Part shown: one piece after another, positions 2,478-3,692 of the stretch
Position numbering within the stretch: position 1 is the first letter of the stretch
Layout of the letters: each line of letters begins with the position of its first letter
Position numbers and translations under genes: made by a program
Notes under the pieces: model-generated
Databases searched by the model: none
What the model was told of the DNA's origin: nothing
Seen by the model: the letters and a program-made list of their open reading frames with translations, nothing else
Source: a virus
DNA length: 14,104 nucleotides
Strand: one strand, 5' to 3'
Virus genome (UHGV): UHGV-0325397

Positions 2478-2984
2478 TTAAATTGCGTGAATAGCGTGAC
2501 GAGGGAAGGGGAGAGTTACTGGTGCAAAGGGTATATCGTCGTCAAAATCCATCGGAGGTTCGTTGTGTTGTGCTGGTGATGATTGCTGCTGTGGCTTCTG
2601 TGATTGCCTGCTGACTGCTTGTTGTTTGCTGTCGCCAATGCCGCCAAGCATTTGCATCACGCCATTAATTCCGACATGAACCTCGGTTGTGTAACGGTCT
2701 TGCCCTGACTGGTCTTTCCACTTTCTGGTTCTCAGCATTCCCTCGAAATAAATCTGATCACCTTTTTTCACATACTGCCCCACGACCTCAGCCAGTTTCC
2801 CGGATACAGCAACACGATGCCATTCAGTCAATTCCTTTTGCTCGCCAGTATTTTTATCTCGCCATTGTTCTGACGTGGCTATTGTCAGGTTAGCGAACGC
2901 TGTTCCTGATGTTGAGTATCGAACTTCCGGGTCTTGTCCTACCCGACCAAGGATAATCACCTTATTTACGCCTCTGCTTGCCAT
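2478..2984 (-). CDS. ssb: Single-stranded DNA-binding protein (SSB) with a 15-residue extension past the usual acidic DDDIPF C-terminus
   Basis: N-terminus [27 protein letters not shown] and W/F-rich OB-fold region typical of bacterial SSB; Gly/Gln-rich linker; MDFDDDIPF present but followed by [15 protein letters not shown] before the stop. Confidence 0.88.
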
Positions 2985-3692
2985 TTATGCCGCCTGTTTT
3001 AGTTCGTTAATTCTGATGTTCATTACCTGAACGCATTTAGCCTGCGCATCCTCATTGCCAGCCATTAATTGCCAGTCACGCTGATAACGCTCGATGAGTT
3101 TTTTCTTGTCAGTTTCTTTCGATGCATAATCGCTGAAGTCTTTCAGGATTTGTTCGCAGTCAACCGATGGAGATTTCTGGTTGGTATTTTCTGGTGATGG
3201 TTTGTTATCTGATACTGGGATTGCCCATCCCGGCAGCGATGGAGGGGACCAGTAAAATCCTGTTCCATCTTTCAGTTTTGCCCTGTGCCATCCCTGCTTT
3301 TTATCGAGAGATGTTTGTGCGAAACCTTCCTCAAGGTTATACAGATACCGACCGATTCCCCACTGAACGGCAGCGCGCTTCATTGCACCGGAACGACCAC
3401 CTTTGACGGCTTCTACCTGCGTGTTTTCAGCAGCATCCCATTTGGTTACCCATTCGGAATCAATCTTGATTGATATGCCGCATTCAACTCCGCCGTTGTT
3501 GGGAATATCGCGGTATTCATTGCGCCATCCTGCTTTGCCGCAAACATCGTCCAGGCGTTTCATGATTGCCCGGTTCGTGACATAAGCCAGCACCATAGCC
3601 CACACCTTGCCATCGCGTGTTTTACCGCTTTGCTGTATTCGCCATTCGATATCTTCAGGGCTGAATGGCTCATCGAATTTGTTCAAATCCAT
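2985..3692 (-). CDS. Rad52-family single-strand annealing protein (Sak-like recombinase); family assignment tentative
   Basis: 235 aa; motif GAMKRAAVQWGIGRYLY resembles the conserved K-R-A...FG region of Rad52/Sak annealases; stop codon directly abuts the ssb ATG (TAA-ATG); occupies the position of the recombination module. Confidence 0.55.
   Translation of the reverse strand: MDLNKFDEPFSPEDIEWRIQQSGKTRDGKVWAMVLAYVTNRAIMKRLDDVCGKAGWRNEYRDIPNNGGVECGISIKIDSEWVTKWDAAENTQVEAVKGGRSGAMKRAAVQWGIGRYLYNLEEGFAQTSLDKKQGWHRAKLKDGTGFYWSPPSLPGWAIPVSDNKPSPENTNQKSPSVDCEQILKDFSDYASKETDKKKLIERYQRDWQLMAGNEDAQAKCVQVMNIRINELKQAA

Follow-up and report, generated by a model that had tools for sequence, protein, structure and literature searches.

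Recombination (Rec) modules of lambdoid phages have been sorted into 13 functional types (Genome Res 2025, PMC12315714). One of these, the HK75 type, is scored as anti-RecBCD+, SSB+, nuclease-, and SAP+ and accounts for 27 of 325 lambdoid phages (PMC12315714, Table 1), and the ES18 type is the HK75 type plus a nuclease (PMC12315714). SSBs of the Sf6/ES18 type "have not been studied experimentally" (PMC12315714). P22-like modules share the layout arf-SSAP-(abc1 or ssb)-abc2 (Hutinet et al., PMC5928155). The Abc2 protein of such modules hijacks RecBCD and turns it into a recombination 5'-3' exonuclease that readies DNA ends (PMC5928155), and it binds RecC and blocks activation at Chi (PMC12315714).

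Here we describe a recombination locus in a 14,104-nt stretch of viral DNA (UHGV-0325397; referred to below as the window). Contiguous SAP, SSB, and anti-RecBCD genes lie in the early left operon with no nuclease gene among them, which is the composition of an HK75-type Rec module. We consider it likely that these genes form the recombination module of a lambdoid E. coli prophage, of the HK75 functional type, and that they work by the mechanism set out below. The three-gene module is already known, classified, annotated, and common; as a textbook and widespread alternative to lambda Red, it adds nothing new in itself. Its only unusual detail is the C terminus of the SSB, the one element that might repay more work.

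The module lies in the early left operon between cIII and xis/int

The annealase and SSB genes sit between cIII (3947..4117) and xis/int (1341..1532 and 182..1360). This slot is the early-left operon position of lambda Red or P22 erf/abc, in agreement with the first-pass annotation, which had placed the pair where lambda carries its Red genes. The upstream edge of the recombination region is marked by the cIII-like gene, on the minus strand (PHROG 550, 1e-22). Two small minus-strand ORFs follow. The first, of 52 aa (3792..3950), is Sf6 gp30 (PHROG 2123, 1.2e-41; 100% identity by tblastn), and the second (3701..3871) is Sf6 gp29 (PHROG 1723, 9.4e-36; 100% by tblastn) at the position of arf in P22. 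The gp29-like ORF had no Pfam match, Phage_Arf included, and is a possible accessory gene.

Downstream of the module, the minus strand encodes a small DUF2737 protein (1993..2160; 55 aa from an internal ATG; PF10930, 4.7e-31) with 93% identity to HK75 gp29 by tblastn. This gene is a conserved neighbor of abc2 and was also found beside abc2 in contigs L005, L008, and L013. It is followed on the same strand by a gene for a DUF7739/Sf6 gp22-like protein (1697..1996; PF24881, 5.4e-21), which is 95% identical to HK75 gp27 and gave no nuclease match by profile search. The region ends with an AlpA-like excisionase gene, xis, identified by Pfam, and the integrase gene, int, on the plus strand.

Beyond cIII, we observed a gp17-like superinfection-exclusion gene (4193..4600; Pfam and PHROG) and a gene for a LexA/S24-type repressor (6046..6687), as PGAP annotates relatives. 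The nin region on the plus strand includes NinB, a lambda Orf-type recombination mediator (10312..10752; PF05772, 1.1e-54), and a RusA Holliday-junction resolvase (12628..12990; PF05866, 2.4e-16). NinB lies outside the module, yet it represents a recombination function of the same prophage. The rightward side of the prophage also encodes YbcO and an HNH_3 protein. We found no homologues of Gam, Beta, or Exo among the ORFs scanned across the window.

The 235-aa protein is a Rad52/Sak-type annealase

The first gene of the module (2985..3692, minus strand) encodes a 235-aa protein that we assigned to the Rad52/Sak type of single-strand annealing proteins from its ORF, its Pfam and PHROG matches, and its fold. 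The sole Pfam match was Rad52_Rad22 (PF04098; E = 5e-26, 91.9 bits against a cut-off of 20.3), covering positions 7-153 of the 153 in the model, and no match to either the RecT/Redbeta family (PF03837) or the ERF family (PF04404) was found in Pfam at E ≤ 0.1. The first-pass annotation had called this protein a putative Rad52-family annealase and had proposed a profile comparison of the Rad52/Sak, RecT, and Erf families; only Rad52_Rad22 was returned, and the call is upheld. Both the Rad52_Rad22 score and that of the SSB profile described below were far above the chance level, and all 120 annealase homologues listed carry PF04098. The protein also belongs to PHROG 1097 (4e-129), and the "Erf-like" label attached to the annealase comes only from the name of that PHROG. 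Annealases 96-98% identical to this one are encoded by HK75, mEp235, and Sf6 (gp28).

The motif on which the earlier call had relied, MKRAAVQWGIGRYLYN, occupies residues 104-119 of the protein and is a conserved basic/aromatic helix motif of the KRA..FGIGRYLY type. Most of its positions, namely, K105, R106, G112, G114, R115, Y116, L117, and Y118, do not vary among 32 homologues with 58-90% identity. These invariant residues may be the counterparts of the residues that line the DNA groove of RAD52.

We distinguished three domains in the annealase: an N-terminal Rad52-like domain (residues ~4-136), a small beta mini-domain (residues ~126-160), and a C-terminal three-helix domain (residues 179-234). 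When the AF2 single-chain model (pLDDT 80) was compared with the PDB by Foldseek, the six best matches were human RAD52 chains and yeast Mgm101, with human RAD52 8rjw as the best (probability 0.97, E = 0.011) and Mgm101 represented by 9yi9. At E values of ~0.01 and with low TM-scores, the predicted Rad52-like N-terminal fold is supportive, not strong alone. Sequence identity between the annealase and RAD52 is only ~15%. Searches of PDB chains with the single annealase sequence or with a 32-sequence profile returned no Rad52 structure and gave only weak matches to a WW domain (PRP40; E = 0.06-0.12, residues 129-163); RAD52 and Mgm101 were therefore recovered only by fold comparison. As a separate candidate relationship, we considered that the three-helix C terminus might be a shuffled domain for SSB docking, homologous to the C terminus of the ERF-type annealase from Vibrio phage BT-1011. 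This candidate was rejected; BLASTP produced no alignment between the two C-terminal regions at E ≤ 100.

SSB and Abc2 genes follow the annealase gene without a phage exonuclease

The annealase gene is followed on the minus strand by a gene for a phage SSB of 168 aa (2478..2984; Pfam PF00436, E = 6.3e-36), in which an OB fold (residues 6-113) precedes a disordered linker, tip, and tail. In the AF2 model, the OB fold was confident, with pLDDT values of 75-89 over residues 11-110, and residues 114-168 fell below 50. The TAA stop codon of the annealase gene (2985-2987) directly abuts the ATG start codon of ssb (2982-2984), which bears out the junction that had been read from the DNA earlier. The abutment recurred in 73 of 80 related loci. 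These loci are the best 80 of 574 IMG/VR contigs that encode this annealase; all are 97-98% identical, so the comparison samples variants of the module and not deep diversity.

Next to ssb, the minus strand encodes Abc2, an anti-RecBCD protein (RecBCD hijacker) of 97 aa (2171..2464; PHROG 656). The match to PF11043 spans the full length, residues 1-97 of 97 (209.6 bits, E = 5.6e-63), and the 13-nt spacer between ssb and abc2 contains AGGAG. No nuclease family in Pfam or PHROGs matched the ORFs between the annealase gene and xis, and the earlier statement that no exonuclease is recognizable among the small downstream ORFs is thus literally true. A full-length Abc2 encoded beside ssb would therefore explain the missing exonuclease, with host RecBCD co-opted for end resection. 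Both the binding of RecC by Abc2 and the altered RecBCD activity are known for P22 Abc2 and are carried over to this protein by analogy. Chi sites numbered 0 against an expectation of 0.35, which is too small to discriminate.

The first-pass annotation had proposed that an annealase-SSB pair replaces the lambda Red module. The protein families, their linkage, and their position agree with that proposal; the unit, however, consists of three genes and includes Abc2. We weighed the possibility that annealase and SSB are nonetheless a self-sufficient replacement for Red without end processing, acting only on single-stranded DNA (ssDNA) exposed at forks or on ends that unmodified host nucleases had resected. 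The lack of a detected nuclease family in the module is compatible with such a pair, as are two contigs (L014 and L015) with an annealase-SSB-HNH layout and no abc2 called in the next 2.5 kb. In HK620, annealase and SSB alone gave full oligonucleotide recombineering, and coexpression of abc2 with sak4 had no effect (PMC5928155). On the other hand, abc2 came after ssb in 80 of 80 loci (best 80 of 574) and does so in divergent relatives as well, the 13-nt spacer speaks for a single unit of translation, and unmodified RecBCD would degrade the linear ends of phage DNA that are the natural substrate. We therefore regard a self-sufficient pair as improbable and favor the three-gene module. Because the HK620 abc2 gene was without effect on oligonucleotide recombineering, a contribution of Abc2 is expected only for double-stranded DNA (dsDNA) ends, and recombineering designs that use the annealase-SSB pair on dsDNA substrates should include or consider abc2.

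The nuclease-free layout is one of several common variants

The module region has 96-97% nucleotide identity to phage mEpX2 and to the plaque-forming phages HK75, mEp235, and Sf6. With at least 80% coverage required, 363 of 5,426 complete E. coli genomes had the annealase-ssb-abc2 triplet as a contiguous unit, and PGAP already names all three genes in them. The layout without a nuclease is not out of the ordinary: it is the published HK75 type and carries PGAP annotations in hundreds of E. coli genomes.

Among the best 80 of the 574 contigs, the order annealase, SSB, and, further along, Abc2 was kept in 80 of 80 loci, and the synteny is also kept in more divergent relatives. Four layouts were observed in these 80 loci. 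In 33, SSB is followed by Abc2 without a nuclease, as in the window; in 25, a DnaQ-like Rv2179c-type exonuclease (PF16473, 1.3e-73) lies between SSB and Abc2; in 17, an HNH gene takes that place; and 5 loci have HNH and then the exonuclease ahead of Abc2. Several variants are common, the nuclease-free state among them.

Many E. coli prophages are defective, and the window derives from a region that resembles a prophage, so the module might instead be a decaying, nonfunctional remnant in a cryptic prophage. Against this, none of the three ORFs is broken or shortened relative to its profile, only a few residues differ from the genes of plaque-forming HK75 and mEp235, and the regulatory, replication, and nin genes nearby are likewise intact. 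We find such decay highly improbable and treat the module as functional in the following model.

Proposed model for RecBCD-dependent annealing recombination

Our preferred reading builds on the observed family assignments, gene order, spacing, and conservation, from which we infer the functional steps. Transcription from pL would proceed leftwards through cIII and the two small ORFs and then through the annealase gene, ssb, and abc2, and the stop-start abutment together with the 13-nt AGGAG spacer suggests translational coupling. By analogy with P22 Abc2, Abc2 would bind RecC of host RecBCD and block both Chi-dependent switching and the destruction of phage DNA. The modified RecBCD would then act, again as with P22 Abc2, as a helicase and 5'-strand nuclease that leaves 3' single-stranded tails at phage double-strand ends. 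The phage SSB may coat the resulting ssDNA, and the Rad52-type annealase, presumably an oligomeric ring as expected for its family, would be loaded onto the SSB-coated strands. As a family member, the annealase would likely pair this ssDNA, without need of RecA, with ssDNA of complementary sequence at replication forks or other resected ends. The exonuclease would come from host RecBCD, and the module would therefore be a functional analogue of lambda Gam plus Exo plus Beta and of P22 Abc1/Abc2 plus Erf.

A conserved 15-residue extension caps the acidic tip of the SSB

Partner binding by the SSB C-terminal tip (SSB-Ct) requires a free carboxylate on the terminal Phe. In the window's SSB, the canonical SSB-Ct acidic tip, DFDDDIPF, is internal, at residues 146-153 (2526..2549, minus strand; identified by translation and alignment). 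Instead of DDDIPF forming the extreme C terminus, 15 more residues come after it. This capping extension (residues 154-168; 2481..2525, minus strand), recognized from the translation and homologue clusters, is conserved in 108 of the 120 nearest SSB homologue clusters, with a linker before it that varies freely, and it follows the pattern [AS]P[VI][TG]L[PQ][FY][PG][RK][HN]x[IVL][HY]x[ILF]. Because 15 residues cap the tip, the published "last 6-7 residues" rule may not hold for contact between annealase and SSB. Those who clone the gene should note that this SSB lacks the canonical free DDDIPF end, the key determinant in current models of SSAP-SSB portability.

The same tip and tail end SSBs in quite different genetic contexts. 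We found them on an SSB adjoining RecT and a PDDEXK exonuclease in a Proteus phage, on an SSB adjoining an ERF protein in a Vibrio phage, and at the end of a 308-aa SSB-annotated protein, without an OB-fold Pfam match, in ~150-kb virulent phages of the Phapecoctavirus type. The tip-and-tail motif search also matched phi92 and rV5-type genomes, with 159 phage records in all by tblastn. In conjugative IncN plasmids, pNDM-ECS01 for example, the SSBs carry the tip and tail as well (82 plasmid records by tblastn, 58 of them conjugative). An exhaustive phmmer search with the 30-aa tip-and-tail peptide against 1.84 billion representatives recovered only 13 short fragments, probably because canonical SSBs stand in for tail-bearing SSBs at 50% clustering, and this number is a poor guide to how widely the tail is distributed. 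Given that the tail accompanies three annealase families and also occurs where there is none, an adaptor role specific to the annealase is unlikely.

A comparison of the Vibrio gene with the Phapecoctavirus gene shows 14 differences over the 15 tail codons, 11 of them synonymous and 3 nonsynonymous. That most differences are synonymous implies that selection acts on the tail peptide. As the peptide is kept through so many synonymous changes, we rejected a purely DNA-level element, such as a ribosome-binding site or a boundary, as the sole explanation of the tail. Enterobacterial prophages share the 45 nt encoding the tail without a difference, and there this stretch serves also as a boundary for recombination or insertion. 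In Sf6 and the Salmonella contigs L013 to L015, the SSB stops at DIPF, an HNH ORF begins 8-9 nt later, and this HNH ORF ends in the same tail, with all 15 residues in L013 to L015 and 14 in Sf6. Across the best 80 of the 574 contigs, the tail was present in 57 of 58 loci without that HNH gene and absent from 21 of 22 loci with it. Because presence of the tail tracks the HNH gene in this way, the HNH cassette must sit exactly at the boundary between tip and tail. A second ORF, of the HNH_3 type, lies exactly at the annealase/ssb junction in 7 loci (best 80 of 574 contigs).

In the AF2 model, made to look for docking of the tail on the OB fold, the tail came out disordered, as would be expected of a short linear motif. 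Our literature search found no description of this SSB tail; subscription journals were thinly covered, so an earlier account is possible. We raise, as a tentative suggestion that we would not yet bet on, that the 15-residue extension is an undescribed short linear motif specific to SSBs of mobile elements, here meaning lambdoid prophages, ~150-kb virulent phages, Vibrio phages, and IncN plasmids, and that it could change the partners that these SSBs recruit. The tail might keep host SSB-Ct clients, exonucleases and restart proteins among them, from being engaged, or alternatively might give a second docking site for a protein of the host or the element. It could also be cut off by proteolysis, unmasking the tip. 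If the suggestion is right, the tail would act as a hidden variable in whether SSAP-SSB pairs are compatible and portable. The capped tip offers a modest lead, open to testing, on the way in which mobile elements adjust the SSB interaction hub.

The occurrence of tail-bearing SSBs without an annealase, in IncN plasmids and ~150-kb virulent phages, means that the SSB may act beyond recombination. In a stronger form, it would be mainly a general mobile-element SSB, serving replication, establishment, or the protection and rewiring of the host SSB interactome, and its adjacency to the annealase would reflect operon packaging more than any specific pairing. The same tip and tail beside RecT, beside ERF, in IncN plasmids, and in virulent myoviruses without an adjacent annealase fit this explanation, as does the pairing of a tail-less version of the same SSB with a Sak4-type annealase. 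However, an SSAP gene followed directly by an SSB gene, with abutting or overlapping codons, recurs with three annealase families, which is what functional pairing predicts, and published SSAP-SSB synergy supports specific pairing. We judge a mainly general role to be rather doubtful. The two roles are not mutually exclusive, and we retain the SSB as a partner of the annealase in the three-gene module.

Comparison with known recombination systems

The window's annealase belongs to the same Pfam family as the Sak protein of lactococcal phage ul36 and human RAD52's N-terminal domain, and Sak has been treated as a mini-Rad52 (PMC2896510). Unlike ul36 Sak and RAD52, the enterobacterial clade has a beta mini-domain and a C-terminal three-helix domain of its own.

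The hkaM-sak4-ssb-abc2 module of HK620 (Hutinet 2018, PMC5928155) has the same SSAP-SSB-Abc2 architecture and a homologous Abc2, and stimulation of its annealase by the cognate SSB was shown experimentally (PMC5928155). Unlike that of the window, the HK620 annealase is a RecA-core (Sak4) protein, and the HK620 SSB ends in a free NDYPPF tip. The latter protein has been described as "SSB-2," not a homologue of bacterial SSB (PMC12315714), and by Hutinet et al. as a distant homologue (PMC5928155).

Lambda Red occupies the same slot and performs the same task, RecA-independent annealing recombination while RecBCD is neutralized. In contrast to lambda Red, the window has no Gam, Exo, or Beta/RecT; RecBCD would be modified instead of blocked, and a phage SSB is added. 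The P22 arf-erf-abc1-abc2 genes share the pL operon position, a homologous Abc2, and the use of hijacked RecBCD in place of a phage exonuclease. The window differs from P22 in that its annealase is of the Rad52/Sak and not the ERF type, SSB stands at the position of abc1, and no ORF matches Phage_Arf.

Modules of the ES18 type (Sf6, ES18, epsilon34, and mEp235) have the same annealase (96-98% amino acid identity to mEp235 and Sf6), SSB, and Abc2. Unlike the window, they carry a gene for an Rv2179c-like DEDDh 3'-5' exonuclease, an HNH gene, or both between ssb and abc2, and where HNH is present, the SSB stops at DIPF and the tail is on the HNH ORF.

The closest system is HK75 (HK75_32/31/30), which has the same three genes in the same order and operon position at 96-97% nucleotide identity. 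Its proteins show few substitutions relative to those of the window (2 residues in SSB and 1 in Abc2), and the SSB tail and intergenic spacers match. Differences are confined to the flanking cargo: kil is present in HK75, as is another gene between the DUF2737 gene and gp27, whereas the window instead has the Sf6 gp29- and gp30-like ORFs and a different integrase.

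HNH genes at the junctions of the annealase-ssb-abc2 module

The SSB extends beyond its canonical acidic tip, DFDDDIPF (window 2526-2549), by a conserved 15-aa tail (2481-2525, minus strand), and together this tip and tail form the C-terminal end of SSBs in prophages, Vibrio phages, virulent coliphages of about 150 kb, and IncN plasmids. The unit is conserved at the protein level; between distant pairs, the tail codons carried 11 synonymous versus 3 nonsynonymous changes. A literature search for a prior description of the tail found none.

In some relatives, an HNH endonuclease gene splits ssb precisely where the DIPF codons give way to those for the tail. 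We located such a gene in Sf6 (gp26; L003, 2605-3084) and in three Salmonella contigs (L013 and L014, both 2968-3447, and L015, 2482-2961). In these HNH-bearing loci, a free DIPF terminates the SSB, and the tail is read as the end of the HNH ORF. Among the best 80 of 574 IMG/VR loci encoding the annealase, 21 of the 22 with this HNH gene lack the tail. The placement of the HNH gene at the exact boundary between tip and tail, along with tail loss that tracks its presence, suggests that the HNH gene within ssb is a mobile cassette rather than a dedicated nuclease of the Rec module.

The junction between the annealase stop and the ssb start is the exact insertion site of a second, unrelated ORF of the HNH_3 type (about 155 aa, with the motif CHKCDNPCCVNPEHLF), which was present in 7 of the same best 80 of 574 loci, including L062 and L085 (3706-4172 in each). 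HNH cassettes seem to target gene junctions of the annealase-ssb-abc2 module repeatedly. The short spacer between ssb and abc2 (equivalent to window 2465-2477) is a variable cargo slot, occupied in the related loci L002 (2084-2632), L004 (2475-3023), and L005 (4573-5238). Depending on the relative, the occupant is an HNH gene or codes for either an Rv2179c-like DEDDh 3'-5' exonuclease or an anti-repressor-like protein (221 aa, PHROG 1726). Because these contents are diverse, the occupants are not necessarily recombination functions.

Annealase partners of the SSB

In Enterobacter prophages (L016 and L017, 1628-2959), a Sak4-type (AAA_24) annealase is followed directly by an SSB of the same family as that of the window, ending in DDIPF without the tail. 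This single type of SSB is therefore paired with at least two annealase folds.

In the window annealase, the Rad52 domain is separated from the C-terminal helices by a small three-stranded beta mini-domain (3213-3308, minus strand; residues ~129-160), modeled with pLDDT of 87-94 and with W148, P151, L153, P154, W156, and P159 invariant. This mini-domain gave weak sequence matches to the WW domain of PRP40 (E 0.06-0.12). The ligands of WW domains are proline-rich peptides, and proline is abundant in the C-terminus of the SSB; speculatively, the mini-domain might be linked to that C-terminus.

Chi (GCTGGTGG) occurred 0 times on both strands of the whole window, an absence that fits phages encoding an anti-RecBCD protein but carries no information at this length, where 0.35 sites are expected.

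Other genes of the prophage

The 392-aa integrase gene (182-1360, plus strand) runs opposite to the pL operon, in the same orientation as in the related locus L008, and overlaps tail to tail with an AlpA-like excisionase gene (1341-1532, minus strand). No tRNA gene lies within the window. Just downstream of the repressor/pL region, a 52-aa arginine-rich ORF (5543-5701, minus strand) containing NARNRRRARRQAQREQ resembles the arginine-rich motif of N-type antiterminators; a Pfam search gave no match for it. A gene for a T5orf172/MUG113 (GIY-YIG-like) domain protein (7429-8073, plus strand) has been inserted between cII and replication gene O, and is probably either a moron or a mobile gene resembling a nuclease. 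The O protein (8027-8902, plus strand) has tandem peptide repeats, NFVSKLETKNVSKLETLNVSKLET, around residues 150-175, probably the imprint of ori iterons lying within the coding sequence, as in lambda.
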